IMG/VR virus record: IMGVR_UViG_3300009095_000011
Coordinates: 32,001 to 96,000 of that record
Direction: 5' to 3' (one strand)
Origin: a virus
Lineage: Duplodnaviria > Caudoviricetes
DNA length: 64,000 nt
Shown: one piece after another, positions 1-32,719 of the stretch
Position numbering within the stretch: position 1 is the stretch's first letter
Layout: the number at the start of each line of letters is the position of its first letter
Position numbers and translations under genes: made by a program
Notes under the pieces: model-generated
Databases searched by the model: none
The model's input: the letters and a program-made list of their open reading frames with translations, nothing else
What the model was told of the DNA's origin: nothing

Positions 1-1
1 G

Positions 2-544
2 GTATCCATCATTATTTCTTGCTTCAATATAATTCACATAGTTTTTGTAAAACTTTTGTCCTGTTTTCTCATTTACTTTACTCACTTCCTTATTGGTCTT
101 GAATGTATGTAAATGTTCTTTTTTTACAAAAACATAAATCAATTCAGTAATCCTACTTAATTTGGTTGGAGAAGTCTGAAATGGTATTGCGTTTGGTTTC
201 TTCCAACAAATAATATCAGCAATAGTTAAATCAGTTTCATTGTGAATTTTAGCAACCAATAATGTTGGTAGAATAGGATTTTCTTTTGCATAAGATATGT
301 TGTAGCAAATTACACCAGTATCATTTATTACTCTTGAAAATTCTTTAAATTCATTTGTTCTAACTTCAAGATAATCATTCTCACTCAAACCATCTAATTC
401 AGAATATCCATTATTGTAATAACAATCACTTCTTTCTGTATTAATGTTATATGGTGGTGATGTAATTATCCCATCAATAGATTTATCATAAAGTCTTTTC
501 AAGGTAATCTTACAATCTTCGTTATAAATTATATTTCGTTTCAT
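2..544 (-). CDS. DNA methyltransferase (N4-C/N6-A, beta-class-like), 3' end runs off the window; likely cassette cargo
   Basis: Not in the ORF track. Manual translation from ATG at 544 gives MKRNIIYNEDCKITLKRLYDKSIDGIITSPPYN...IICWKKPN, with an SPPY catalytic motif; the frame stays open to the window edge. Confidence 0.85.
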   Translation of the reverse strand, partial: MKRNIIYNEDCKITLKRLYDKSIDGIITSPPYNINTERSDCYYNNGYSELDGLSENDYLEVRTNEFKEFSRVINDTGVICYNISYAKENPILPTLLVAKIHNETDLTIADIICWKKPNAIPFQTSPTKLSRITELIYVFVKKEHLHTFKTNKEVSKVNEKTGQKFYKNYVNYIEARNNDGY

Positions 545-638
545 TATTCAATTTTTGTTTTTTACCACCGCACAAAAAAGAAAAGAAAAGAAAAAGGTTA
601 GTCTTTCGATTCAAGTTCTGTGCTATAATACCGCACCA

Positions 639-771
639 GCTTATAACAGCGTGTATAAAAAATGGCGGGTTCTCGGTTAATTTAAAGTTTTATAATTCTA
701 ATTAAGTTCTGCGTTTTCTGAAAGTTTTGGAGTTCTAATCCGCCACTTCTTATACACGCAAAACGTTAGTT
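639..771 (+). repeat. attC-like hairpin site A (array 1)
   Basis: Left arm gcttatAAC-a-gcgtgtataaaaaatggcgg and right arm ccgccacttcttatacacgc-aaaac-GTTagtt form an imperfect inverted repeat bounded by AAC and GTT. Confidence 0.8.
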
Positions 772-1044
772 TCCATTTGGATAAGCAGCATTACCATCTT
801 TTAAAGACCAGTGCCATCCATCATTCATCGTGTGTTTACGTGGTTTTCTATAAGCCTTTTGTCCGTTACTTAAATATGCCAATGTCTTAGACACATCTAC
901 AACTTTCACAGCTTCCATCCTGTAATTATGATTTAGTACACCATGATATTTACGAACAAAAACCACGTCACCAATTTCTAAAAAACGGCAACTAACACCC
1001 GCTATAGTGCATGGCTGTTCGTTTTTTTCTGATATTGTATCCAT
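766..1044 (-). CDS. Cassette-encoded hypothetical protein; starts inside the loop of attC-like site B
   Basis: ORF track, 92 aa. Reads through the left arm as QPCTIAGVSCRF; the TAA stop overlaps the GTT core at 765-768. Confidence 0.7.
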   Translation of the reverse strand: MDTISEKNEQPCTIAGVSCRFLEIGDVVFVRKYHGVLNHNYRMEAVKVVDVSKTLAYLSNGQKAYRKPRKHTMNDGWHWSLKDGNAAYPNGN

Positions 1045-1111
1045 AATTTAAAGTTTATTTACTGTTTGGGTGCGTTGTTGAAAGCCACGCACCATAGCTT
1101 TTACGTTGTAG
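987..1111 (+). repeat. attC-like hairpin site B (array 1)
   Basis: ggcaactAAC-accc-gctatagtgcatggct ... agccacgcaccatagc-ttttac-GTTgtag. ggcaactaac is complementary (9/10) to the cassette start gttagtttcc at 765. Confidence 0.8.
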
Positions 1112-1120
1112 GTAATAAAC

Positions 1121-1330
1121 CTACTCATATACTCGTAACACAAAAGTTACAGATTTCTTACACCTGTCCTCAGCCATCCATTCTCCATCCTCAGTTAAAT
1201 AGCTTTCATCTGTATTCTCAAAATAATTAGTATACAGTAACTTTGGGATTAAATCATCTCCGTCAGCCAGATTGTACACCTTACCTTTTGTGTAACTTTC
1301 TTTTATCTCTTTAATTAATTTCTTTGCCAT
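1121..1330 (-). CDS. Cassette-encoded hypothetical protein
   Basis: ORF track, 69 aa; lies between gttgtaggta (1105) and tacctacaac (1368-1377). Confidence 0.7.
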   Translation of the reverse strand: MAKKLIKEIKESYTKGKVYNLADGDDLIPKLLYTNYFENTDESYLTEDGEWMAEDRCKKSVTFVLRVYE

Positions 1331-1367
1331 GTTATCAAGTTTTCGTTTTCAAATCCGTAGGCTTACA

Positions 1368-1426
1368 TACCTACAACACACGCTAAAACGCCATACAAGT
1401 ACAGGCGTTTAGCTACATCGTTAGTA
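1368..1426 (+). repeat. Short attC-like hairpin site C (array 1)
   Basis: tacctacAAC-acac-gctaaaacgcc ... ggcgtttagc-tacatc-GTTagta, about 59 bp, with one extra A in the left arm. Confidence 0.75.
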
Positions 1427-1430
1427 GTCA

Positions 1431-1682
1431 TTACTCATCATCTTCAGGATAAATAGACACGCCTTTTCTTTCACAGGGAGTTTTGCCACAATATTTACAA
1501 TAGCCTTCAGGCAACGAACCGCTAACATCGGCTAAATCCAATGCTTTGTTTCGTTTCAATTCATCAATTCCCCTTCTTACATATTTCTCTACATCAATAC
1601 CTTCGCTTTCAAGATAGGCTGTAGCTCCTTCGGAAGTATCAATATCAAATCCATTTACTATAGTCATAATTTTCGTTTTCAA
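1431..1682 (-). CDS. Cassette-encoded hypothetical protein with C-terminal CxxC; starts inside the loop of attC-like site D
   Basis: ORF track, 83 aa; reads through the left arm as ALDLADVSGSLP. Confidence 0.7.
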   Translation of the reverse strand: MKTKIMTIVNGFDIDTSEGATAYLESEGIDVEKYVRRGIDELKRNKALDLADVSGSLPEGYCKYCGKTPCERKGVSIYPEDDE

Positions 1683-1714
1683 ATTCGCACTGGTTTAGTC
1701 GCGGCACGTTATAT
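1517..1714 (+). repeat. attC-like hairpin site D with a long coding loop (array 1)
   Basis: aaccgctAAC-at-cggctaaatccaatgc ... (about 140-nt loop) ... gcactggtttagtcg-cggcac-GTTatat. Confidence 0.7.
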
Positions 1715-1724
1715 TTGCGAACCG

Positions 1725-2177
1725 TTATTTCCCTCTCGCATCCCAACATAACTGATCTACCATCTCATTCCATTGATTTCCTGCATGACCACGAACCCAC
1801 TTGAAGGTAACGTTTGGCAAGGACAATTTGAGAGAATTGAGATACTGCCACAATTGTTGGTTTGCTATTGGTTTTCCTGATGTACTGTACCATTTCTGAT
1901 CAATCCATTGTTTGAGCCATAAATTAAGCCCTGTGATACAATATTTACTATCACTTAATACAATCACCTTATCAGTGATGTTATTGTCTCTGAGCCACTG
2001 TAAACCCTTTGTAATAGCTGTTAATTCCATGATGTTTGATGTGACGTTGTGTGCATCTCCATGATCGAAATGAATAAGGTCATCATCTTTAATTACAACG
2101 AAGGCCCATGCACCATATTTATGATGCTTTGATTTTGGGTTATTGGAGCAGCCACCGTCTGTGTAGATGTAGATCAT
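1725..2177 (-). CDS. rnhA: Ribonuclease HI
   Basis: Motifs IYTDGGCS, TSNIMELTA, SDSKY, WVRGHAG and NEMVDQL. The likely start is ATG at 2177 rather than 2243. Confidence 0.92.
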   Translation of the reverse strand: MIYIYTDGGCSNNPKSKHHKYGAWAFVVIKDDDLIHFDHGDAHNVTSNIMELTAITKGLQWLRDNNITDKVIVLSDSKYCITGLNLWLKQWIDQKWYSTSGKPIANQQLWQYLNSLKLSLPNVTFKWVRGHAGNQWNEMVDQLCWDARGK

Positions 2178-2691
2178 CTTCCACAAATTAACATTAATAC
2201 TCTTATTAATATAAACCCAATAACTTTCTTTAAAGAAATCCAAAAGAACAAAATTGACAAATGGATTGATTCTTTAAATATGTGAAACCAGAAGATTATT
2301 TTTTGCTTTTGAACCATTCGTATAATCCGACTAATGCAAAGATAATTATTGCTCCTGCGAATGATAAGATTACTTGTGTCATTACTGTAAATTTAAGTTA
2401 AAAATTTTATTATTAATATTGACTTTTATATACCAAGTGTAAACTATATTATCACTATAGGTCATAAAGTCAATGAATAATCTGATTCTCTTTTCTTTAT
2501 TTGATATTGATTTGATGATTTTCATCATTTTTTCAAATAAGTTTTATCAATAATTCGTTTATTTATTGCTTTAAGGTTATCAACATACAAAGGAAAGGTA
2601 TTGAGAATAGCTATCTGCTCTCGCTTAAGTTGCAATTGTCGTTGCATTGCTAATTCAATTCGGTTTATGAGTTGAATGGTTGATTGTGAGG

Positions 2692-2895
2692 TCATGATTT
2701 TACAAATACTTTTTTAATGTGCAACCTTGTACTATCTTTCCCTGGCTTATCGAAGTAATCTCTGATATATTCAACAGCCTCTTCGTAGGTGTCTTTGACT
2801 TCCCATTGTTTGAATACTTCGATCATCATCTGCTCTATTCCAGAATCAAAAATACATTCAGTGGATAATTCTCCGATTATGAATTGCTCTTTCAT
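2692..2895 (-). CDS. Hypothetical protein
   Basis: ORF track, 67 aa, directly downstream of a copy of the phage promoter motif. Confidence 0.6.
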   Translation of the reverse strand: MKEQFIIGELSTECIFDSGIEQMMIEVFKQWEVKDTYEEAVEYIRDYFDKPGKDSTRLHIKKVFVKS

Positions 2896-2904
2896 CTCTA
2901 TAAC

Positions 2905-2960
2905 TTTTAGTTAAACATTTATTACTCTGTAAATATAATCATTGTATTTATAAGTTGCAA
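2905..2960 (-). promoter_or_regulatory. Phage promoter motif (Bacteroidota sigma-like)
   Basis: Minus strand reads TTGCA-N-TATATTTAC followed by ATGTTTAACTAAAA. Similar copies lie near 5700-5745, 16990-17015, 47140-47190, 49860-49910 and 59545-59600. Confidence 0.65.
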
Positions 2961-3118
2961 CTATTATTATATATATTTTATATAATATTTAATATAATAT
3001 ACTTCTTTTCCCTTTGTATTTAATATATTATATATAAATAATATCCTTTTTTAAGTTATATATAAACTTGACCTGTATGGTTTGCAAGGCAAAGCAAAAC
3101 ATACAAATAAAGGTCTGA

Positions 3119-3931
3119 TCACACTTTGTGGGATTTGCCATTTATGTGGTTAAGTTTATTGTCGTTGAAAAAAGACAAAGGAGAGGTTAGTAGTGTATTG
3201 CATAAACGCATGTGAATATTTACCATACCTTTCTTTTTTTTATCAAATATATAGAAAGTTTTGGGATTAAGTCTGCTAACATTATCATTAAGGTAGGTAG
3301 TGATATGCATTTTATCTACCATGATGCTATTATTTTGCACAGACATTAAACCTTGCTTTCTTAGTTTTGATTGAATTTTACAAGCTGCCATTCTCGTTTT
3401 CAATCCTAATCGATTAGCCATAGCACGTTGAGAAATTTGATAACCGCCCTCTGAATAAGCCCTGCAAGGTTTGTTATCTCGTTTATCAATGTAAAAAAGC
3501 CTCTGTTCTAATCGATATTGATCAAAATGATATATGACTTCAAGTAATTTGTTTTTGCTATTAATTAAGTCATGAGGTATTTTTATTATTTCATTTGCAT
3601 TTTTATATCCCCTTCCACTTCTCTTAGGTTCGAATCCTAATTTTTGCCATAGTTTATCATAGGAAAGCAATTGATAGCCAACGTGTTTATTGTTTTTATC
3701 ATACACAATAATGGCTATTTCATTATCTACCATTGATTTAAATCGTTCTCTAATGGTAGCCTTATTGATATTAAGATGGCAGGAGATTTGTTTTAGGTAG
3801 TTTTTTTTATAGAAGTATCCAGAATCACAGAAAGATTTTAATTGCATGAAAAAAAGATAGTCATGCTTTAAGCCTGCTTTGGAAGCTTTCTCAATAGTTC
3901 CTTCGAGATATTTAATGGGATTGGATCTCAA
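3119..3931 (-). CDS. Putative DNA-binding / replication-initiator-like protein (HTH)
   Basis: Basic 270-aa protein with HTH-like segments (ISQRAMANRLGLKTRMAACKIQSKLRKQG), next to a very AT-rich tract at 2940-3070. Confidence 0.45.
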   Translation of the reverse strand: MRSNPIKYLEGTIEKASKAGLKHDYLFFMQLKSFCDSGYFYKKNYLKQISCHLNINKATIRERFKSMVDNEIAIIVYDKNNKHVGYQLLSYDKLWQKLGFEPKRSGRGYKNANEIIKIPHDLINSKNKLLEVIYHFDQYRLEQRLFYIDKRDNKPCRAYSEGGYQISQRAMANRLGLKTRMAACKIQSKLRKQGLMSVQNNSIMVDKMHITTYLNDNVSRLNPKTFYIFDKKKKGMVNIHMRLCNTLLTSPLSFFNDNKLNHINGKSHKV

Positions 3932-4107
3932 CTATATATAAAAGAAAAAGACCAGACTATTGCAGGATTATCTGGCCTTTTTGATTATTGGATTAAAAAA
4001 CTTAATTCAATTAATCATCCATAATCCTGCGAACTAAAAAATTAATTGAATTTTGTGTGAAATTAATATAATTGAAATTAAGATGCAAGTTTTTAGGTAA
4101 TTATTTT

Positions 4108-8382: not shown

Positions 8383-10233
8383 CTAATTTAAATGCACAAT
8401 TTCGCTTATTGCGTTGATTTTCTTAACAATGATGATATTCTCATAATTGATATTTGCAATATAATTATTACTATCATCTTTCTCAACATTAACAAGTTGA
8501 CTAATTAATAAGATATTGATATTGATATCATTGAGAGATTTAACAAGAATTTCAATACCTAATGAATCAAGTGATTCCAATATCTCATCCAGGACAATGA
8601 AGTTAAGCCCTCTGCCATCAGTTGAGATATTAATGAGCTTCTGCATAGCAAGGATGACAGATATTTCAATACGTGCTTTCTCACCACCTGATAGACCATA
8701 GAATGAACCAACATCAATTCCATTCTTTAATACAATGACATTGATCTTTTCTCTGATATCTTTACCCTTATTGACTTCTTTATATCCCTCAATTTTGATT
8801 CTGATATTAGATTTTAATTGCTCAAGATAAAAATTAGCATAGCTCTCAATTGCACATAATGATTGATTGGCAAGATAACCTTTGAACCTTTTGAAATTGA
8901 TCAGCCATTCTTCACATTTAGACAATTGTTGATTTGTATCTTCTAATTGTTTTTGATATTGTTCATTCTCAGATTGTAAAGTTTCAATCTTTTGTAAAGT
9001 CTCTGCATCTTTTGAATTTTCTATTTTACTGAGGTCTTTAATAGTGCTTTCAAATGATTTGTTTTCATTATTGAGCATATTGATTTCACGAGTGTATTTA
9101 GTGATATCAAATTGTAATTCATCATATTGAGATTGACTGTATTTTTTATCCTTTTGTAGCTGTTCCAGTTGAGTATTAATAATCTGTTGCTGGAATAGAA
9201 CGTCTTTAAGAGATTCCTGGATGATAGGAAGATTCTCTCTTAATTCTACAAGGGGAATTGATTTATCTTTGAATGAGAATTTATGATTGCAATTTGGACA
9301 CTGTACTTCATCGCCCAAATGTTTTTCAATATCCCTTAATACAGTTTCATATTCTTTTTCAGTAGTTTTAAGTTCTTTTAATTGTGGATCAAATTCACTG
9401 ATTGATTTAGTGTAATCAGCAAGCAATAATTTATGATCTTCAAGGTAAGATTGATTACTTTCAATTAATTGTTTCTTGACTTCAATTTGTTCAATATTGA
9501 CAGTAATTTTATCTTGATATTGCTTAATCAGTTCACCATTATCATTGCTATCTTGATCAATACTTTCAATGTAAGCCTCAATCTTACTTTCATTAGCGTG
9601 AATCCTTCGCTCTAAGGCATTCTTTTTATCTGAATAAGTATTGATGTCGTCTTTAATAGAATCATCGATAGGATCAATTATATATGCCTTAGAGAACCTA
9701 TTAATAAGATCTTTCTTGGCAGTATCGGAACTATTAAAGAATGAGGTATATTTTTCTTTACTGATAATGAAGTAATCAGAGATATGATCACTTGAAAGTC
9801 CAAATGTTTCCAATACAAACGATTTGCATTGATTAACATCAAGTCTTTTCTTTTCCTGATCGTTTACAAGCAAGTGTTCAGGAACTTTGTCATTAATTTC
9901 AACCCAATATTCAGATGGAGTAGTATTGGCAAATACTTTCTTTCTGATATATAGAGTTTGATTGAGTACTTCGCTTCTAAACCAACCCTCAACTATAAAG
10001 AATTTTTCACCATAAAATATTGCATTGGCTTTATTGATCTTTCGTAGGTATGAATCTGTAGTAAGGAAATATAAAGCCTCAATGATCCAGCTTTTACCAC
10101 TTCCATTGCTTTTCTGCCCATCATCAGTTTCATTAATTCCACAAAGCAAGGAAGTTTGGTTGGTGGGGAATGTGTATTCGGTGTTTTTATGGGAACCGAA
10201 ATTAGTAAGTACGATTTTATGAGGTGTGTACAT
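8383..10233 (-). CDS. sbcC: SbcC/Rad50-like recombination ATPase
   Basis: Walker A NGSGKS, coiled coil with CPNC zinc hook, LSGGE signature and Walker B IVLDE. Confidence 0.92.
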   Translation of the reverse strand: MYTPHKIVLTNFGSHKNTEYTFPTNQTSLLCGINETDDGQKSNGSGKSWIIEALYFLTTDSYLRKINKANAIFYGEKFFIVEGWFRSEVLNQTLYIRKKVFANTTPSEYWVEINDKVPEHLLVNDQEKKRLDVNQCKSFVLETFGLSSDHISDYFIISKEKYTSFFNSSDTAKKDLINRFSKAYIIDPIDDSIKDDINTYSDKKNALERRIHANESKIEAYIESIDQDSNDNGELIKQYQDKITVNIEQIEVKKQLIESNQSYLEDHKLLLADYTKSISEFDPQLKELKTTEKEYETVLRDIEKHLGDEVQCPNCNHKFSFKDKSIPLVELRENLPIIQESLKDVLFQQQIINTQLEQLQKDKKYSQSQYDELQFDITKYTREINMLNNENKSFESTIKDLSKIENSKDAETLQKIETLQSENEQYQKQLEDTNQQLSKCEEWLINFKRFKGYLANQSLCAIESYANFYLEQLKSNIRIKIEGYKEVNKGKDIREKINVIVLKNGIDVGSFYGLSGGEKARIEISVILAMQKLINISTDGRGLNFIVLDEILESLDSLGIEILVKSLNDININILLISQLVNVEKDDSNNYIANINYENIIIVKKINAISEIVHLN

Positions 10234-14045: not shown

Positions 14046-14624
14046 TTAATTTTTAATTTCATAACCTGCTTCATTTGGCGATGGAATATACACATTGTGC
14101 TCTATTGCAGCCCAATCTCTTATTGATTCAATATATTGACTAAATTCATAAGTGTCTTTGTCAGTGGTTGTTAATGGAATATTTCGAGTTTGAGTGATTG
14201 TAATAAACTTACCATACTTAGGCCAATTGTCAATATCAATCACTGTATATTTTGGTAACAAAGGGAGCTTATTGGAACTGATTAGCATATCATTGATATC
14301 TTTTTCTTCGAGATATTGTGCAGGTTTTTCAAATTCAAATATACTATCATCATAAACCTCAAAGTATTCGGTTTTTATTTCAATCTTTCTGCTATTGAAT
14401 TGTAGTTTGAGAATCTCATGCATCTCATCTGTATTATATCCAAAATAATCACTAAGGATTTTAACTACCACTGCAAAATAGTAACTGTTCTGTTCCCTTG
14501 ATCTATTTCTTCGATACTTCTTTATAGAAAACCAGTAAGCAATATCTTCAAGTGTTTCAAGATGTTTGAGTACTTTATCTCTGTGATGAGGATTAGACCA
14601 GTCTATAAGGATATCAAGGTTCAT
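14046..14624 (-). CDS. NinB-like recombination protein with internal insertion
   Basis: [13 protein letters not shown]...EMHEILK and TT...[14 protein letters not shown]...IPSPNE motifs. Confidence 0.7.
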
Positions 14625-15433
14625 ATTGGTAATGGAATTTTATTGAGCAAATTAGTACTTACATGGGTGTATATTTCTGTAGTCTTACTTGAATTGTGTC
14701 CTAATAACTTCTGAATTATCCTTATATCAGTTCCATTCTCTAACAATGAAGTTGCACTTGAATGTCTTAATTGATGAAAATGATATTGATTGCCCAAATA
14801 TTTCTTTATAATTTGATTACAAGAAGTGGATGAATATTGAAGACAATTTTGACCATTAAATAAATATTCTTTTGGTTTATATTGTTTATAATAGTCTCTA
14901 AGTAATTTAAGAATATTTTCACTTAATGGGACAACTCTATCTTTTCTACCCTTGGCATTTTTGATATTAATTATCATTCGCTTACTGTCAATATCCTTAA
15001 TTTTAAGATTGATTACCTCAGATACCCTAAGTCCTACAGAATATGCAAGCGAAATAATTGCTTTATGTTTAATGTTTTCAATCTTGGGAATCTTATCTAA
15101 AAGATATTTTTGATCGATTATTTGAGGTAATTTTTTCTCTTTCTTTGGTCTGGTAAATGAAACCTTATCATACTTTTTGTTTAAGCCAAACTTATATAAA
15201 AACCTAATGGCATTTATGACTTGATTTTGTTGAGAAATAGAGGAGAAATTGTATTGATCAAGATAGGATTGGAAATCGCTTGCAACTAAATGTTGATAAT
15301 ACTTACCTGTACTTTGAATAAACTTATCTATATAGTGAATATAGATACTTATCGTTCTTTCTGAGTAATTAAGATATTTAAGCTTTCGTTCGCAAATCTT
15401 TAAAATATCTTCTTTTTTCTTATTCATAATCAA
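14621..15433 (-). CDS. Tyrosine recombinase, integron-integrase-like/Xer-like, without the IntI I2 insertion
   Basis: N-terminal SAM-like YSERTISIY...[14 protein letters not shown]; catalytic R (GLRVSE), K (KGRKDR), HQLRH, LGH and Y (TTEIYTHV). Probable ATG at 15427. Confidence 0.92.
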
Positions 15434-15472
15434 TAGTTTACAAGTTAAATCTTATATATAATAGTTAGGCAC
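15434..15472 (+). other. Candidate attI-like primary recombination site
   Basis: Non-palindromic site next to the integrase start, ending ataataG/TTAGGCAC, with further GTT repeats at 15436 and 15444. Confidence 0.55.
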
Positions 15473-15480
15473 AATAAAAA

Positions 15481-15786
15481 TTATTCCTCTGGTGTATCTA
15501 ACATATATCTCCAATATTTAACGTCTGTAAAATCAGTGTACCAACTACCAGCACCTAAAATAAACCAATTATATTCGTGTTTGGGACTACCAGTTCTTTT
15601 TATCAACTGTAATTTTGCTGGAGTCCATATATCATCATAAAACACCAAAACATAATCACTTTCTCTTTTTTCTTCAACACTTCCTTCTCTTTTATCGCAT
15701 TCTGCAATTTCCCAAACTTCATTTCCTAGTTTTGGTATTTCATTAATTGTCAGTTTATAGTCCATAATTTTAAAAGTGCCTAACAA
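15481..15786 (-). CDS. Cassette 1 hypothetical protein (array 2)
   Basis: ORF track; flanked by GTTAGGCAC (15464) and GTGCCTAAC (15776). The likely start is the internal MDYK. Confidence 0.7.
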   Translation of the reverse strand: MLGTFKIMDYKLTINEIPKLGNEVWEIAECDKREGSVEEKRESDYVLVFYDDIWTPAKLQLIKRTGSPKHEYNWFILGAGSWYTDFTDVKYWRYMLDTPEE

Positions 15787-15901
15787 AGTGTATAAGCAAT
15801 AGCCGTTAGACGTTTTAAACTATTGCAGTTGTTAATAATAATTTTTATTCTTCTAGTCAAGTTTTGTGTTCGGCTACTGCTCATACACTAAACCGTTGTG
15901 C
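15776..15901 (+). repeat. attC-like hairpin site 1 (array 2)
   Basis: gtgcctAAC-aa-agtgtataagcaatagccg ... cggctactgctcatacact-aaacc-GTTgtgc. Confidence 0.85.
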
Positions 15902-15907
15902 GCAATA

Positions 15908-16177
15908 CTACTCCGCTGGCTCATACGTTTTCACAAATATATCAGGCTTGCAGGGGTAAAATTCACCGTGTACGCCCTTTATAATCCAATCGCCTTTACG
16001 GGCTAAGTGGTCGCCTTCAAGAGTTTCAATGTAAAATGTTTGCGTTCCCATTTCTCCGGGCTTCCACTTGGTTAATCCCATATTCATAATGTGCTGCCAG
16101 CTTTCATCTGTGCCATCCCATTGAGCAGCTTCAATTACAACAGGTTTCTTTCTAAATTTCATATTCGTACTGCGCAC
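15908..16177 (-). CDS. Cassette 2 conserved small phage protein (PGDYG-like)
   Basis: [11 protein letters not shown]...IETLEG...[23 protein letters not shown]. Confidence 0.8.
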
Positions 16178-16301
16178 AACACAAAATAAAATGCAGTGGG
16201 TTGTACGTCTTATTTACACTGCTTGCCTGTCTGTTAGTTTCGGTCAGTCGGACAGCTCAGGCTTATCTATCCCACCGACATTTTATTCAAATTCGTTGTA
16301 G
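16167..16301 (+). repeat. attC-like hairpin site 2 (array 2)
   Basis: gtactgcgcacAAC-acaa-aataaaatgcagtggg ... cccaccgacattttatt-caaattc-GTTgtag. The left end is complementary (13/14) to gttgtgcgcaatac at 15895. Confidence 0.85.
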
Positions 16302-16305
16302 GCAA

Positions 16306-16587
16306 TTAGTCTGCCCTTTCACCACTTCCAAAACAAGTAAGACAGGGCAATATTTCATTAGTACCTTTACCACTAAAACCTTCGCCTTCACAATTCGGGC
16401 AAACTAACTGTTCGCTTTGCCCTACAACATTAGATAAAACCAATAATGCTTGGTCTATCTGCCGTTCTTCTTCTTGTAATTCAGACGCTATTTCAGCTAT
16501 ATACTGATCTACTTCTTTTGGCATTTTCTGAAACTTTTTATCTATTTCAGACTTTCGTTTTATAAGGATGTTTATTACTTTCTTCAT
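16306..16587 (-). CDS. Cassette 3 protein: coiled-coil N-part encoded in the attC loop plus a CxxCxGxG zinc-finger C-part
   Basis: 93 aa; reads through the left arm as ALLVLSNVVGQSEQL; CPNCEGEG and CLTCFGSG motifs. Confidence 0.75.
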   Translation of the reverse strand: MKKVINILIKRKSEIDKKFQKMPKEVDQYIAEIASELQEEERQIDQALLVLSNVVGQSEQLVCPNCEGEGFSGKGTNEILPCLTCFGSGERAD

Positions 16588-16619
16588 CGCATTACTGTTT
16601 TTATCATTATACGTTGTGC
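16417..16619 (+). repeat. attC-like hairpin site 3 with a long coding loop (array 2)
   Basis: ttgccctacAAC-atta-gataaaaccaataatgc ... gcattactgtttttatc-attatac-GTTgtgc. Confidence 0.75.
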
Positions 16620-16620
16620 G

Positions 16621-16836
16621 CTATAATGGCTGAACACCTTCATCTTTCATTAATTCTTGTGCTTCTTTTGTAGCCATCAATACAGCTAATGCGGCATCAG
16701 CCATTCTTTCGACTTGATTTTTCCCGTACCAACAAAAGTCTTGTAATACAGGTAATTCAAATACCTTATCAATTGCATCAATTAATTCTTTTCTTACATC
16801 TTGTTCTTGCTTTGAAATCATAATATTACAGCGCAC
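16621..16836 (-). CDS. Cassette 4 hypothetical protein (array 2)
   Basis: ORF track; flanked by gttgtgcgctataat (16613) and attacagcgcacaac (16825), which are 14/15 complementary. Confidence 0.7.
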   Translation of the reverse strand: MRCNIMISKQEQDVRKELIDAIDKVFELPVLQDFCWYGKNQVERMADAALAVLMATKEAQELMKDEGVQPL

Positions 16837-16963
16837 AACATTGTATATAAATCAGTGGCGTTGTACGTCTATTTTGAACCACCTTTGCTGTTAATTTAGT
16901 TTTGTGCGGTTAGCAATCTTACAGCTATTAATCGCCACCGCTTCATATACTTTACCGTTGTGG
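16825..16963 (+). repeat. attC-like hairpin site 4 (array 2)
   Basis: gcgcacAAC-att-gtatataaatcagtggcg ... cgccaccgcttcatatac-tttacc-GTTgtgg. The loop start resembles that of site 2 (cagtgg(g/cg)ttgtacgtct). Confidence 0.85.
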
Positions 16964-16989
16964 TGCATTAAAACGATTGCACAACAACC

Positions 16990-17015
16990 ATACAAATATA
17001 AACGTTTTATCTATT
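16990..17015 (-). promoter_or_regulatory. Phage promoter facing into cassette array 2
   Basis: Minus strand cTTGCAtctaatagataaaacgttTATATTTGta matches the Bacteroidota TTG / TAnnTTTG consensus. Confidence 0.7.
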
Positions 17016-17038
17016 AGATGCAAGAAAAGTGTGGAGAA

Positions 17039-19636
17039 TTATACTCCACAAGTTCCACCACCAGTAAGTTCACAAACATCATGAAATTCTTCTTTAAATT
17101 CCTCACCAACCTTATCAATAGCTTCATGATATGGTACAATTGTTAATGGCTGTCCACCTCTGGCAGAATCTGGATAACAAGTGAAACCTCTCAATCTGTG
17201 AGCATATTTAAGTAATGTATGAGCAAAATGATCAACAAGAGATTCATTGTTGTATTTAGATCCCCACTTGGGAAAATTAATTGTTGACGAAATACTCATA
17301 TCAACATAATCTTGCACATCAGCTTGAAATCTTATCCTTCTTTCATAATCTTTTGCAAGATCAATTGCACTTTCAATTTTGTCTGGATTAATTCCAAATT
17401 GATTAATTAATATTTCGGCAGTTCCATCAACTACATATTGATAATGCCAATCTTTATCGCTTTTTAGATATCTTCTTTTGTAAGCAACTGCAAAAATAGG
17501 TTCAATTCCAGTTGAAGTTCCTGACAAAATCCCAATGCTGCCAGTAGGTGCAATTGCCCTATACGCAGCAGGTCTTGATATGCTTAATTGATCACATAAT
17601 TCATTAGCTGCATTTTCTGATTCATCTTTATAGACTTGCAACCACTGCCTTAATTCATCATTCATTTCATAATTATAATCTCTTTTCAATAACCATTCAT
17701 GAACACCCATAAGGCCAAGTCCCAATCTTCTATTTTTCTTTCTTACCTCATAAACTTTATCATAAGGCAAATCAGCCTTTAAGGTTCCACACACAAGGAA
17801 TTTACTCATTAAACGAACAACCATTCTGAATGTCTCTATATCATCAATTCTGGACATATTAAGAGACGCAAGGTTACAAACATCGCTATCATCTTCACTC
17901 ACCACTTCTGTGCAAGCATTTCTTAGAGTTTGATTTACTTTTTCAAAGAAATTAAAGCTAAAACCAGGTTCACCAGTTTGACAAGCTTGTCTACAATTTG
18001 TAAGAAATGTTGGAGGAATATGTTTTATTTCTAATTGTTCGCCTGCTAAATACTTAGCTTTAATTTGATCAATTGGTAATTGATAAACTTGCTCAAGAAA
18101 ATCATTGTCATAATTAAGACTTATGTTTGTCATATCTAATGGAGCAGGGAAATTAAAATCTTTCTCTTTTAATGTACCGACATTAGTATTGGCTATCTTT
18201 TGAGAATGCCAATCTTTAGCTTTAAGAAATTCAGGTATATCTCCATGTTGCCAATTGAGAGAAGCATAAATAGCTGAACGCCTTGAGCCACCTTGCATTA
18301 CTTCTCTACCAATTTCATTAATAATCCTCATTGCACTGACTGCACCAGAAGCTACACCACCAGTTTTTGACAATTTACTGCCACGTGGCCTATAAACACT
18401 ATAATCAATCCCTATTCCTCCACCTGTCATAAGACAAGATTGTGCTCTCCAAGATAAATTAGCCCATTCTTCACGTGTATCGCTTTCAGCTTTTAACAAG
18501 AAACAATTAAATGTATCAATATTATTTTCAAGTATAAATCTATTATACACAGGTTCATAAGGACAATAAACATCCTCTTTTCCTAATGATCTGATAGAAT
18601 CAACCTTAAACCCCTCCCACCTTTCGCCATAATTATAATTAATAGTATAAATTCTAGAATGTTTTTTATATGCCGTCTCTCTATCCTGAAATCTTTTTTC
18701 TCCACTTATAACTAATCCAGCACATATAGCATTATCTATAAAATAATCTATATGAGATTCTGTTACAGAATTTATTTTTTTTCCTACTTTCTCGCAAGCA
18801 TCTGCTTTAATCCACCCTAATATAAATCCACTTATATAGTCAGTAGTTTCATTTTTACTTGGTAACTCTTTAAAATTTATATCATTCCAAATTCTAATAA
18901 CAGCATCTCCATTATAAGTTTTTGGAAACTTGATATTATATTCAATATTAAGTTCTTTTAAATAATCTTCTACTTTATTTAAATAAGACATATTCTTTTC
19001 TCCACATAAACGAATCTTATGTGTATATTTTTGATCTTTGTTTCTTATTCTTTCAAGATTTCCATCGCCAAATATTAAACCATGAATCCATCCCCTTTTA
19101 CTAAAATTAGAAAATTTTCCAGCAGGAACTACATCACCGATTCGCAAATCATAAGTATCTTTACCATTTATTAAAGGCCAATGATGAGTTCTTGTAGATT
19201 TTATTTTATAAGATATGTTGGAATTGCCCCTAATTGGTTTAAATATAATTTCTTGCACATCTTGTTTCCCATGATAAATTATCTCAGAAGGATAATATTT
19301 ACCATCAATAGGAGATTTTAACATTAAAGTTTTTCCTACATTAGATTTTAAATCTTTTAATCCAAAATCAGTTAAGACCTTAGTTTCTCCCGCAAAGCAA
19401 TTGTTAAAAAATTTATTTTCTCTACCAGCATAATATAAATATCTACCTCCCGCAATTGCTTGCATATCAGTATGAATTTGAATTAATTGTCGTATTTCAT
19501 CTTTAGTAAGCAAATCTCCACAAACATCATTTATTAGTGTTTTACTTAATTTATCCCACGTTTCACAATCTTTGTGTGCATATTTGTGATTAAAAATGTC
19601 TTCGGAGAATTTACTTCTGAAATATTTCTGACTCAT
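17039..19636 (-). CDS. nrdJ: Class II (B12-dependent) ribonucleotide reductase containing an intein
   Basis: GGR, GGGIG, GGSRRSA, GEPG, RNACTE (NxCxE), CNLASLN, APTGS and a C-terminal Cys pair; no nrdB nearby. Confidence 0.9.
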   Translation of the reverse strand: MSQKYFRSKFSEDIFNHKYAHKDCETWDKLSKTLINDVCGDLLTKDEIRQLIQIHTDMQAIAGGRYLYYAGRENKFFNNCFAGETKVLTDFGLKDLKSNVGKTLMLKSPIDGKYYPSEIIYHGKQDVQEIIFKPIRGNSNISYKIKSTRTHHWPLINGKDTYDLRIGDVVPAGKFSNFSKRGWIHGLIFGDGNLERIRNKDQKYTHKIRLCGEKNMSYLNKVEDYLKELNIEYNIKFPKTYNGDAVIRIWNDINFKELPSKNETTDYISGFILGWIKADACEKVGKKINSVTESHIDYFIDNAICAGLVISGEKRFQDRETAYKKHSRIYTINYNYGERWEGFKVDSIRSLGKEDVYCPYEPVYNRFILENNIDTFNCFLLKAESDTREEWANLSWRAQSCLMTGGGIGIDYSVYRPRGSKLSKTGGVASGAVSAMRIINEIGREVMQGGSRRSAIYASLNWQHGDIPEFLKAKDWHSQKIANTNVGTLKEKDFNFPAPLDMTNISLNYDNDFLEQVYQLPIDQIKAKYLAGEQLEIKHIPPTFLTNCRQACQTGEPGFSFNFFEKVNQTLRNACTEVVSEDDSDVCNLASLNMSRIDDIETFRMVVRLMSKFLVCGTLKADLPYDKVYEVRKKNRRLGLGLMGVHEWLLKRDYNYEMNDELRQWLQVYKDESENAANELCDQLSISRPAAYRAIAPTGSIGILSGTSTGIEPIFAVAYKRRYLKSDKDWHYQYVVDGTAEILINQFGINPDKIESAIDLAKDYERRIRFQADVQDYVDMSISSTINFPKWGSKYNNESLVDHFAHTLLKYAHRLRGFTCYPDSARGGQPLTIVPYHEAIDKVGEEFKEEFHDVCELTGGGTCGV
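18506..19399 (-). mobile_element. Intein with LAGLIDADG homing endonuclease (298 aa)
   Basis: Starts CFAGETKVLT after ...FFNN and ends ...ENNIDTFN before CFLL; internal GLIFGDG and GWIKADA motifs. Confidence 0.9.
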
Positions 19637-29900: not shown

Positions 29901-30095
29901 CATTCCTAATGAATAACCTATTTGTGCTTTCTTGCAAGCTTCCTGGAATGATAATGTTCCTCCTAATGTATTATGATCACATATTCCAAGATGATCTATT
30001 CCTAAGAATTTAGCTTTCTTTATGTAATCTTTATGTTCTCTTGTTCCTGAACATATTTCGTATTTAGAATGAATAGCAAGGTGAGAGTAGTTCAT
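26952..30095 (-). CDS. dnaE: DNA polymerase III alpha subunit (family C)
   Basis: PHP domain (HLAIHSKY, CDHNTL), GRGSAA, PDVDIDF, KEDILGL, YQEQVM, FNYSHA and a C-terminal OB fold. Confidence 0.95.
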   Translation of the reverse strand: MNYSHLAIHSKYEICSGTREHKDYIKKAKFLGIDHLGICDHNTLGGTLSFQEACKKAQIGYSLGMTATVQSKATYLVKLYVKNKTGWQNLLRINKAIKVDNDGFIVEKELLERSSGLILVIPPDSINYFNKAVFYKFSKQFKDIYFQFDPVEYKSNERDKEHLLNLKQYLHELYPICPPVLMSDSYYLDKSHAHIKPKLAKIGKVPFSYASDDQHFKSIDELFFSLSKLFKGEDDRLYDIFAQSAENSVKIADKCKFEIETGKLHLPKYIMTDEEKEQYGTTNNMFDNLIMKGLIRIGKENDQKYLDRIEYETSVIDLGGYREYFLITYDICREADKRGIMRNLGRGSAASSLCLYLMNVTMIDPLEYNLPFDRFLNSARVTKGLPDVDIDFSSEGREKIKQYIVQKYGYNHTAYVGTWGLLKIKSALKELAKENGTDFQTINYITGTFPKKVADEPQNITELFKYSQEVTVLKKFIKENIEVVNDLPLVNNVIRNKSIHASAIIIFPHVDEEGNEIEVWDWIPVRKEDGIIVSEYSGTVLDKLGFLKEDILGLSQLDKVGDIFKIVKEKYGKEYNFQNIPLDDKKVFWMFNDGYTADVFQFSGGGMTGFLMDMRPDKLNDLIAANALYRPGAMGTGSHIDYIKIKNGERLPEYLWGLEEITKETYGILAYQEQVMRACVDLAGFSLADSDMIRKGIGKKDQELLNSYKPQFIEGAIKNGCPKEEAEHIWNMFESFGQYSFNYSHAACYTILGYTTMYLKAHYPVAFYNVALQYADDSTKPQIIAEMNRLGEVMVSQPDINHSGEYFKPDFDKKKIYWSLVSVKWVGEKAVEKIIEERNNKGNFFSVKDLFDRVDKRTVNKRAITNLILAGAFDELYNVKQESDRIKILREYYEEIIKEDLPEEFNDFNNIWKNHWWILKSLELTGLGYINYKELIQSSSFASESNSLIDLLRFNQEESIGQEIVVSGVIEKIIERKSKRGKFVQIDINVNSEMIHFTLWNEEYEKYKKVLKNAEKSIIFIKGIIKHDGWKKCNVLHSNENTKVEII

Positions 30096-31783: not shown

Positions 31784-32719
31784 TTAAAGATTATCAATGA
31801 AAAAATCAAAAGGAGATTTAATATTATTTAGTGCTTTCTCTAATTGATCATAACTGCAATCGCCTGGATCATTATTTCCTGCAATAGTGGTTATGTTGGT
31901 ATTGAAGTATAAATCTAATTCAAAGGAAATTGGCTTTATCTTACTGACTACATCGTTATCAAAAAGTAAGATGGTATTCTTAATGTTGGGCTTGGATCTT
32001 AATAATTCAAGCTGATTGTGGGAAAGTTTTGCACCAAAAGTGCATAATGGTTTAATTTGGTCACAATCATAAAGGTCTAAAAGCCTATTTACATTTATAA
32101 TATCCAATTTTCCTTCACACAATATTACAGTATGTGTCTGATCGGTTACTTTGTCAAAACCTCCAAGTAAACAAGAGAAATCAGAGATTGAATTATTATA
32201 TTTTGGATCTCCTTCAACTTCTCTCCTGCTGACATAAGCCTTAACTTGACCTTCCAGATAAATAGGAAATATACAGTATTTTTTCAAAGAACTAAGTAAG
32301 CTCGTTTTGCCTACTTCCCAATATTGATAATCTTTTTCTACAAAACCCCTGCTATCGAGATAGTCGTTTTGATAAACTCTTCTATACCCCAATGGCAATT
32401 GTTTGTTTGGTAAAGATAGTAATTTTTGTTGTTCTACTAAAGAAGTTAGAAAAATATTTTCAAGTTTATCATCTAATACATTAACATCTTTAGTAAATTG
32501 AGCTTTTATTCCTAAAATTTTTAGTAAATCATATATATTGCCAACATAACCACATTTGGCCTTTCTAAAACAGCCTACTGGATGATTTTCTTTATTATAT
32601 GAAATGGATGCTTCACGATGATCACACTTGGGGCAATTGATAACAAAGTTGCCTCTCTTGTTGTCCCAAGGTTTTAATGAAGAAAGAAGATTGAATAGTT
32701 TATCTTTATCAAGCTTCAT
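31784..32719 (-). CDS. DNA primase (Zn finger + TOPRIM)
   Basis: CPKC...C....C, LCEGKLD and LFDND motifs; adjacent to the helicase. Confidence 0.88.
   Translation of the reverse strand: MKLDKDKLFNLLSSLKPWDNKRGNFVINCPKCDHREASISYNKENHPVGCFRKAKCGYVGNIYDLLKILGIKAQFTKDVNVLDDKLENIFLTSLVEQQKLLSLPNKQLPLGYRRVYQNDYLDSRGFVEKDYQYWEVGKTSLLSSLKKYCIFPIYLEGQVKAYVSRREVEGDPKYNNSISDFSCLLGGFDKVTDQTHTVILCEGKLDIINVNRLLDLYDCDQIKPLCTFGAKLSHNQLELLRSKPNIKNTILLFDNDVVSKIKPISFELDLYFNTNITTIAGNNDPGDCSYDQLEKALNNIKSPFDFFIDNL

Follow-up and report, generated by a model that had tools for sequence, protein, structure and literature searches.

Integron-like cassette arrays beside an I2-less tyrosine recombinase, a probable gene-capture platform of phages of Bacteroidota

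Integron integrases (IntI) possess an additional domain, I2, which reads the extrahelical bases of folded attC sites. An I2-less enzyme acts on a folded substrate in CTX phage, whose Xer-dependent integration proceeds as a folded single strand, the hairpin mimicking a duplex core site. In the paper on archaeal integrons the additional domain defines IntI, and the part of PMC9668308 that cites Messier and Roy (2001) describes it as defining and necessary. The IntegronFinder 2 paper lists Bacteroidetes with only In0 elements and one complete integron. Clusters of attC sites (CALINs) were described in virulent phages, including Polaribacter phage P12002L (Qi et al. 2023, PMC9892861); no cognate integrase was found and the sites were treated as ordinary attC. 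The integrases of the phages Freya, Leef and Ingeline were taken as signs of a temperate lifestyle, and arrays are unmentioned in that work (Bartlau et al. 2021, PMC8776804). Here we describe an array of four gene cassettes beside a tyrosine recombinase gene in a 64,000-nt stretch of phage DNA (the window, to which coordinates refer unless another sequence is named). Position 1 of the window is position 32,001 of IMG/VR record IMGVR_UViG_3300009095_000011, a phage genome of 114,226 bp that is rated complete. As proposed in a first-pass annotation of the window and supported here by comparative evidence, the array is probably a phage-borne, integron-like platform for gene capture and shuffling. 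It is not unique to this phage: the family to which it belongs is large and extends over phages and chromosomes of Bacteroidota.

The locus resembles integrons, especially sedentary chromosomal ones and, for its bacterial relatives, the ‘inverted-integrase’ group, in the combination of a tyrosine recombinase, an attI-like point and promoter-poor cassettes with a single open reading frame (ORF). Also shared are imperfect palindromes with AAC/GTT cores, built from an R stem, an unpaired spacer, an L stem and a variable loop, and resembling one another within and between arrays. Cassette ends are complementary, only one strand is selected to fold, and the crossover appears to lie at the AAC/GTT core. 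In contrast to integrons the recombinase has no IntI additional domain and scores below the IntI model cut-off, and the hairpins have no conserved extrahelical bases. Furthermore, the phage ORFs lie on the folded strand and point toward the integrase instead of being read from a Pc promoter at the integrase end, ORFs of the family can start inside a hairpin loop, and a member of the hairpin family, P12002L_attC1, was not recombined by IntI1.

The recombinase gene (14621-15427, minus strand, ATG at 15427) encodes a protein of 268 aa, which Pfam, NCBIfam and Protein Data Bank (PDB) alignments assign to the Xer/IntI superfamily without the IntI-specific I2 insertion. It comprises a Phage_integrase domain (PF00589, 1.5e-39) and the N-terminal domain SAM_4 (PF13495). 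Of the NCBIfam models XerA_Arch scored best (183 bits, cut-off 220); the integron integrase model TIGR02249 gave 154 bits in two stretches (cut-off 265), XerC 148 bits (cut-off 335), XerD 147 bits (cut-off 330) and NF011946 102 bits (cut-off 435), so that the protein stays below all Xer equivalog cut-offs and the IntI model cut-offs. In the PDB comparison it matches XerA (4A8E) from end to end (2e-37), and only its residues 19-180 and 217-257 align with IntI4 (2A3V). Between these two blocks 36 residues of the recombinase (181-216) stand opposite 84 residues of the 2A3V chain (182-265), and the I2 region is about 48 residues shorter than that of VchIntIA. The motifs GLRVSE, KGRKDR, HQLRHS, LGH and IYTH are kept and match the catalytic regions of both XerA and IntI4 in the alignment. 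The intact catalytic set and the missing I2 insertion claimed in the first-pass annotation were thus both confirmed.

In IMG/VR 209 relatives of the recombinase were found (58-72% identity). The nearest relatives in GTDB are mostly 42-55% identical and mostly from Bacteroidota, including Flaviramulus, Aquimarina, Maribacter, Arenibacter, Cellulophaga, Flavobacterium and Pseudopedobacter. Loci are labelled L005-L084 for IMG/VR contigs and L085-L164 for bacterial relatives; L001 is Cellulophaga phage phi18:3 and L165 is Polaribacter phage P12002L. A FastTree phylogeny was calculated for 149 family members together with one IntI, one XerC and one XerD reference and was rooted with XerD. The family forms one clade (support 0.85) apart from the XerC and XerD references, the viral recombinases are monophyletic (0.97) and nested among the bacterial ones, and the single IntI reference is sister to the family (0.98), a placement that is only indicative because the references are so few. 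By hidden Markov model (HMM) and PDB comparison the closest protein relatives are Xer recombinases. Unlike these, and in addition to its separate clade and its scores below every equivalog cut-off, the enzyme has arrayed cassette sites beside its own gene and is found in a phage replication module, not in a chromosome-resolution context; a dif site is not apparent, though no search for one was made.

Every gene between 12 and 20 kb of the window lies on the minus strand, and so do all elements of the array. An attI-like site (15434-15466; sense strand AAC↓TATTATATATAAG, the arrow marking the junction here and below) is located between the end of the last cassette and the integrase ATG, and its motif is conserved in relatives. 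The GTT at 15464-15466 is 37 nt from the ATG, in agreement with the approximately 35 nt given earlier. For the detection of hairpins we used a covariance model, R1, built from five hairpins, three from the window and two from phi18:3. Cassette 1 (15465-15895) consists of an ORF of 95 aa without a family (15481-15768) and a hairpin (15782-15897; 133.5 bits with R1), and its 21-nt ends are 86% complementary. Cassette 2 (15896-16295) carries an ORF of 84 aa (15908-16162; PHROG 419, 3.7e-34, function unknown) and a hairpin at 16178-16297, with ends that are 93% complementary. In cassette 3 (16296-16613) an expanded hairpin (16426-16615) with a loop of 139 nt and an L stem at 16433-16449/16589-16605 (88%) holds the start of the ORF (16306-16587, 93 aa). 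The product is a zinc-ribbon protein with a C-terminal CxxC...CxxC; the hairpin loop of the same cassette encodes its N-terminal half. Cassette 4 (16614-16957) comprises an ORF of 66 aa without a family (16621-16821) and a hairpin (16837-16959; 145.8 bits with R1); its ends are 93% complementary. The distal array end (16958-17023) contains a 32-nt unit with pairing ends (GTTGTTGTGCA...TGCACCACAAC) and a promoter-like site.

Three of the hairpins measure 116-123 nt and one 190 nt, all with an AAC...GTT core, and the four hairpin-separated cassettes of the earlier proposal were recovered at their places. The expanded hairpin 16426-16615 was not called by the covariance model, though it has the same architecture when folded. 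All four pairs of complementary cassette ends are also present: 15464-15472/15776-15784, 15895-15908/16167-16180 (93%), 16295-16305/16417-16428 (one indel) and 16613-16627/16825-16839 (93%). Overall, the cassettes' own ends are complementary to 86-93% over 11-21 nt. Such complementarity is the classic sign of a circle closed at the core, and each cassette may therefore once have existed in this form. None of the four ORFs has a known function. The GC content is 0.42-0.45 in cassettes 2-3 versus 0.25-0.36 in the flanks. L063 has a cassette whose ORF is 55% identical to that of cassette 2. Within the cassette 2 ORF, about 75 nt (15921-16000) show 76-87% DNA identity to small hypothetical phage genes of unrelated hosts (Bacillus SPP1 gene 5, Acinetobacter, Streptococcus, Shewanella, Vibrio, Microbacterium), which is an unusually high nucleotide conservation for such distances.

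A phage promoter at the distal end had been postulated. Indeed, a Bacteroidota-type promoter-like element, TTG-N20-TATATTTG, is present at 17023-16993 (minus strand) and directed into the array; however, a single match of this kind carries little weight, the pattern having 15 matches in the window compared to 8.4 in shuffled sequences.

A second array of the same hairpin family with at least four cassettes crosses the window start (window 1-1450, genome 31490-33450, minus strand; R1 matches at 620-783, 971-1123 and genome 31610-31736). Its cargo includes a cassette for a DNA methyltransferase of 265 aa and two ORFs starting inside hairpin loops. It terminates in an attI-like ATAAC↓TACTATATATAAAC, after which no integrase ORF follows. 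In the whole 114-kb genome there are six family hairpins, all confined to the two arrays; a seventh match is hairpin 1 on the other strand.

When folded on the minus strand, hairpins 1 and 2 and the expanded hairpin 3 are more stable than shuffled sequences (z -2.2, -2.9 and -2.4, respectively), and hairpin 4 alone is not better than shuffles (z -0.8). For the three hairpins folded on both strands the plus strand was worse. The consensus of five hairpins consists of a 7-bp R stem with an invariant AACG/TGTT core including a G·T pair, an asymmetric bubble, an 18-bp L stem with the conserved sequence GTRTATG/CWTATAC, and a large variable loop. Two size classes, of about 85 nt and about 123 nt, occur. 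L stems of 17-23 bp were recovered without permitting bulges, and no conserved extrahelical bases were seen in them; only the bubble between R and L stem (4-5 nt versus 1-2 nt) is conserved. The first-pass annotation, which had stated that the hairpins mostly lack extrahelical bases, was right for the continuous L stem but had missed this conserved asymmetric bubble.

Among 16 hairpins 93% of the cells were paired compared to 74% in shuffles, and compensatory changes were found at 17 of 25 pairs; the values for slid controls were 26-51%. The three outer pairs of the R stem are only about half paired in the array context, as expected if the partner is the other end of the hairpin's own cassette. 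In the L stems of 194 viral hairpins we counted 3393 Watson-Crick, 540 G·T and 62 A·C pairs, and in those of the bacterial relatives 116 G·T versus 15 A·C. Since G·T is far above A·C, the pairing is selected on one strand only.

A covariance search of phages and Bacteroidota had been suggested by the first-pass annotation. With R1 about 300 hairpin matches were found in 84 sources, and the arrays proved to be closely and directionally linked to the recombinase family. The linkage was counted with nhmmer, independently of R1, in 34 viral loci with 6 kb on either side of the integrase gene: 165 matches are on the integrase strand upstream of the gene, the opposite strand of this region has none, and three are downstream, the downstream flanks representing an internal control. 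Matches were present in 32 of the 34 loci. Many of the IMG/VR contigs end a few hundred bases upstream of the integrase (e.g. L009, L015, L021, L027, L054, L079), as would be expected if assembly breaks off in arrays that are rich in repeats and vary within the population.

The complementarity of cassette ends extends to the whole family. For 156 neighbouring hairpins the 12 nt after GTT were compared with the reverse complement of the 12 nt before the next AAC, and on average 8.13 of 12 positions were alike, 58% of the comparisons reaching at least 9. The two flanks of the same hairpin gave a mean of 4.82 (2.2% at 9 or more) and random pairs one of 4.58 (1.4%). In pairs of hairpins at least 85% identical, the box 3′ of GTT was retained and the box 5′ of AAC was different in 18 cases; the reverse was seen in four. 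According to this, a hairpin forms a unit with the ORF that comes after it in coding direction, and the AAC 5′ of the hairpin is the place of the crossover. Read on the plus strand, a cassette has the canonical attC layout (R′′ whole, R′ split at G↓TT) with the ORF inverted. In the window and in most of 12 distinct viral loci the attI-like motif AAC↓TAT-N-ATATAT(A)AA precedes the ATG by 35-50 nt, and the Freya/Ingeline branch has a version of its own, AAC↓ACCC(C/A)(T/C)ATAAC. Integrase-specific attI sites are what integron logic predicts.

Of the viral cassette ORFs, 84 are encoded on the folded strand versus five on the opposite one; they are directed toward the integrase and have a median length of 75 aa, and the hairpin ends 15-20 nt ahead of each ATG. 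ORFs cross GTT in 75 cases and AAC↓ in nine, a count that is descriptive only because the choice of the first ATG biases it. The arrangement of cassette ORFs in reverse of the Pc layout, as noted in the first-pass annotation for the window, is therefore a general one among viral cassettes. It is a property of the viral branch, since in 13 of 13 bacterial cassettes the ORF runs antisense to the folded strand. In bacterial (GTDB) loci the same model found 50 hairpins, all but one downstream of the integrase and on the opposite strand. These chromosomal arrays of Bacteroidota agree with the viral ones in hairpin model, complementary ends and G·T bias, and their recombinases (42-55% identical) form one clade with the viral enzymes; they differ in location, strand, ORF orientation and ORF length (median 205 versus 75 aa). 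As the folded strand in bacteria is not mRNA, the structure must be selected in DNA, which argues against a purely RNA-based role for the family. When viral and bacterial loci were compared for shared cassettes, the matches were mostly to the integrase gene. Two contigs binned into metagenome-assembled genomes (L085 and L086) encode integrases which are 54-55% identical to that of the window and branch beside the viral clade. The layout of L085 is the viral one, with a hairpin on the integrase strand ahead of the gene, and both may be phage contigs binned with bacteria.

Gain, loss and duplication of cassettes were observed among relatives. The Polaribacter phages Freya_1 to Freya_10, whose integrase is 38.5% identical to that of the window, are 99-100% identical elsewhere and carry 0 to 12 genes (up to 4.94 kb) between gene 66 and the integrase gene. 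Freya_1 has nothing extra at this position (...GTTTACAAC↓ACCCCTATAAC), Freya_2 to Freya_4 have two genes, and Freya_10 has twelve genes in 4.94 kb (...ACAAC↓GGATATGG, with the hairpin, to GTTGCTAAC↓ACCCC). Freya_5 has the same two genes as Freya_2 to Freya_4 and a further block (Freya_10 positions 1 to about 900) and is devoid of 903-4097, and Freya_8 carries 903-4097 and is devoid of positions 1-902, a deletion from AAC↓ to AAC↓. The three junctions that were read directly, ACAAC↓acccc, ACAAC↓ggatatgg and CTAAC↓acccc, have only AAC in common; block boundaries of the other isolates were taken from BLAST coordinates. The inserts end at the attI-like site. As the gene sets of the isolates do not nest within one another and their junctions have nothing but AAC in common, we attribute these differences to site-specific exchange and not to homologous recombination.

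In L014 a cassette of 394 nt is present twice, 100% identical and duplicated exactly from AAC to AAC. The left junctions read ...ATAAC↓GGCTGCG in both copies, and the preceding sequence differs. The right junctions read ...CTAAC↓; one copy is followed by the next hairpin and the other by TATAATATATAAAG, with the integrase ATG 55 nt further on, so that the second copy adjoins the attI-like site. L025 and L026 have integrases that are 96% identical, but the adjoining 1 kb or so is different. Block rearrangements in L030, L031 and L040 were dropped as mobility evidence, their breakpoints being located at a 114-nt repeat, 100% identical, in metagenome assemblies.

In the lineage of the phage itself, the backbone, the integrase and hairpins 1 and 4 have relatives on short contigs of four other metagenomes, from compost, sludge, gut and soil. 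Cassette 4 is present in two of these four runs, and in all four the ORFs of cassettes 1 and 2 were uncovered and cassette 3 was barely covered. The public runs listed for such sequences included no RNA data set. The similarity stops at 15467 (GTTA↓) and resumes at 16976, an observation which is supportive but of low depth. An invariant array had been named in the first-pass annotation as the outcome that would speak against gene capture; the arrays do vary, as the Freya isolates, L025/L026 and the contigs from other metagenomes demonstrate. The annotation had also placed recombination at G↓TT. Every breakpoint that was checked does fall on the AAC/GTT core, and the crossover is resolved to these 3 nt, not to one bond.

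The cargo was analysed for 64 cassette ORFs of the family. Seven encode DNA methyltransferases, one the Thoeris inhibitor Tad6 (4.6e-41), and an RNA ligase and a PARP-like domain were also identified; 55 ORFs had no match at all. A hairpin of phi18:3 is 84.5% identical to that of cassette 1 and has identical ends but encloses a different ORF, i.e. identical cassette frames (21-nt ends and hairpin) surround unrelated ORFs in the two phages. The array of phi18:3 (L001, 2250-6100), in which the first cassette has this frame, includes a DNA methylase cassette (GTTAGCAAC.../...GTTGCTAAC) and adjoins a gene for a different tyrosine recombinase of 428 aa, outside the family of the window recombinase, as well as an ORF of 78 aa. 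In P12002L (L165, 29981-39260) seven matches to the hairpin model mostly flank genes for DNA methyltransferases and Mom-like proteins, and there is no annotated integrase. The CALINs of P12002L thus share hairpin family and flanking DNA methyltransferase genes with the arrays described here, which differ from them by the connection to a specific I2-less recombinase and an attI-like site and by cassette turnover among isolates. P12002L_attC1, which had been predicted by HattCI and was not recombined by IntI1 (PMC9892861), is a member of the hairpin family (R1 match 29981-30071). The attC2 site, which was active with IntI1 in the same study, is not an R1 match. The published IntI1 assays were therefore rejected as support for the family: the one site that failed belongs to it and the site that worked lies outside the model.

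Taken together, these data suggest the following model. On the coding (minus) strand, a cassette would begin with a hairpin and with GTT plus a box specific to the cassette; a short leader would then precede the ORF, and the box in reverse complement and AAC would follow it. The adjacent Xer/IntI-like recombinase would exchange strands at the AAC core. Recombination between the attI-like site and a cassette hairpin would lead to insertion beside the integrase gene, and recombination between two hairpins to excision of a circle, which could then be re-inserted or lost. The hairpin is most likely active as folded single-stranded DNA, in which R stem, asymmetric bubble and L stem would mimic a core site with two arms, as the bottom strands of attC sites do. 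The cargo consists of small phage accessory genes, among which anti-defence genes are found across the family.

Other explanations have to be considered. Cassettes could also move by double-stranded, Xer/dif-like recombination at AAC/GTT duplex cores, without folded strands and with palindromes that serve only binding or architecture. The best HMM and PDB matches to Xer proteins (XerA, 4A8E, 2e-37) would fit such a mechanism, as would the lack of I2, the IntI part that reads extrahelical bases, and of conserved bulged bases in the L stems. Nevertheless we consider it unlikely: a duplex would be indifferent to the G·T excess over A·C of about 9:1 in viral and bacterial stems, by which pairing within a strand is selected, and the compensatory changes preserve this intra-strand pairing as well. 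Moreover, the R box pairs by only 4 invariant bp in the array, and the cassette's own ends pair over 9-21 nt, as predicted for a folded circle.

Somewhat less probable still is a role of the hairpins at the level of RNA or transcription, as terminators, processing sites or insulators, next to a recombinase that is a lysogeny integrase or dimer resolvase, with general recombination reshaping the arrays. The viral folded strand is indeed the transcribed one, with hairpins ending 15-20 nt before each ATG, and these integrases were read as signs of a temperate lifestyle (PMC8776804); but bacterial hairpins with the same G·T bias are antisense to their ORFs (13/13), breakpoints with only AAC in common do not result from homologous exchange, complementary cassette ends have no evident RNA rationale, and in 32 of 34 loci the hairpins are confined to a single side and strand relative to the integrase. 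Finally, the hairpins could be autonomous miniature mobile elements (similar to miniature inverted-repeat transposable elements or ends of IS200/IS605 type) that insert at AAC/GTT and are only incidentally associated with the recombinase. This would account for 92 pairs of near-identical hairpin cores with unrelated flanks on both sides and for hairpins in phages without a recombinase of the window type (P12002L, phi18:3). It is very improbable, however, as the unit that is gained, lost or duplicated is hairpin plus ORF from AAC to AAC and not the hairpin alone, hairpins have a strict polarity and cluster beside one recombinase family, and the six hairpins of the 114-kb genome are restricted to two arrays and not scattered.

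Several observations also weigh against an integron-like capture platform. The evidence from the phage's own lineage consists of short, low-depth metagenome contigs, and the strongest mobility evidence derives from relatives with integrases 38-72% identical and not from this phage. Wrong assembly at 100% identical repeats could account for some rearrangements (L030/L040). The 92 near-identical hairpin pairs in which both flanks differ do not follow from a single crossover at AAC, and phi18:3 and P12002L carry family hairpins without the window-type recombinase. The single family member assayed in print, P12002L_attC1, was not recombined by IntI1 (PMC9892861). As the viral folded strand is also the mRNA strand, the hairpins may have an additional role in RNA.

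The phage is contractile-tailed, with a genome of about 114 kb. Besides a tail sheath, the genome encodes a DNA polymerase of its own, a ribonucleotide reductase, a DnaB-like helicase and an SbcC-like nuclease; a megablast search with the neighbouring backbone revealed no near relative of the phage among cultured phages. Next to the recombinase gene, a NinB/Orf-like recombination mediator is encoded (14046-14624, minus strand; PHROG 72, 4e-14), overlapping the integrase stop codon by 4 nt. It was considered as single-strand partner and left out of the system, because it is beside the integrase in no other locus. The SbcC-like protein (8383-10233, minus strand; PHROG 77, 1.4e-48) is a subunit of a palindrome-specific nuclease, and the same genome maintains long hairpin-forming palindromes. 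The ribonucleotide reductase (17039-19636, minus strand, 865 aa) matches its PHROG family in two stretches, and an insert of about 300 aa after a Cys resembles an intein with a homing-endonuclease part.

As far as we found, this large I2-less integron-like family, with a phage branch of inverted coding polarity, is apparently undescribed. For Bacteroidota and their phages, our literature search revealed no account of an integron-like system without I2, an absence which is not proof. We lean toward the wider view that it represents a second, I2-independent lineage of the integron type across Bacteroidota, whose phage branch has genes on the recombining strand, sometimes with N-termini in the loop, and allows counter-defence and other accessory genes to be exchanged in nature on the timescale of single isolates. 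In that case, neither the I2 domain nor extrahelical bases would be necessary for hairpin-based cassette recombination, and the same cassette logic without the IntI domain would show that this logic evolved, or persists, with a simpler Xer-like enzyme. Detectors requiring the IntI-specific domain would miss the family, and surveys report Bacteroidota to be nearly empty of integrons. The identical frames with unrelated ORFs, and the ORFs beginning inside the recombination site, bear on the origin of cassettes. The Freya, Danklef, Leef and Ingeline phages offer cultured, tractable systems for watching cassette capture. Caution is advisable in taking these integrases as evidence of lysogeny, and many ‘temperate’ assignments based on them in flavobacterial phages would be wrong if the wider view holds. 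For the phages, the arrays would provide a concrete mechanism for the fast turnover of small accessory genes, including orphan DNA methylases and a Thoeris inhibitor.

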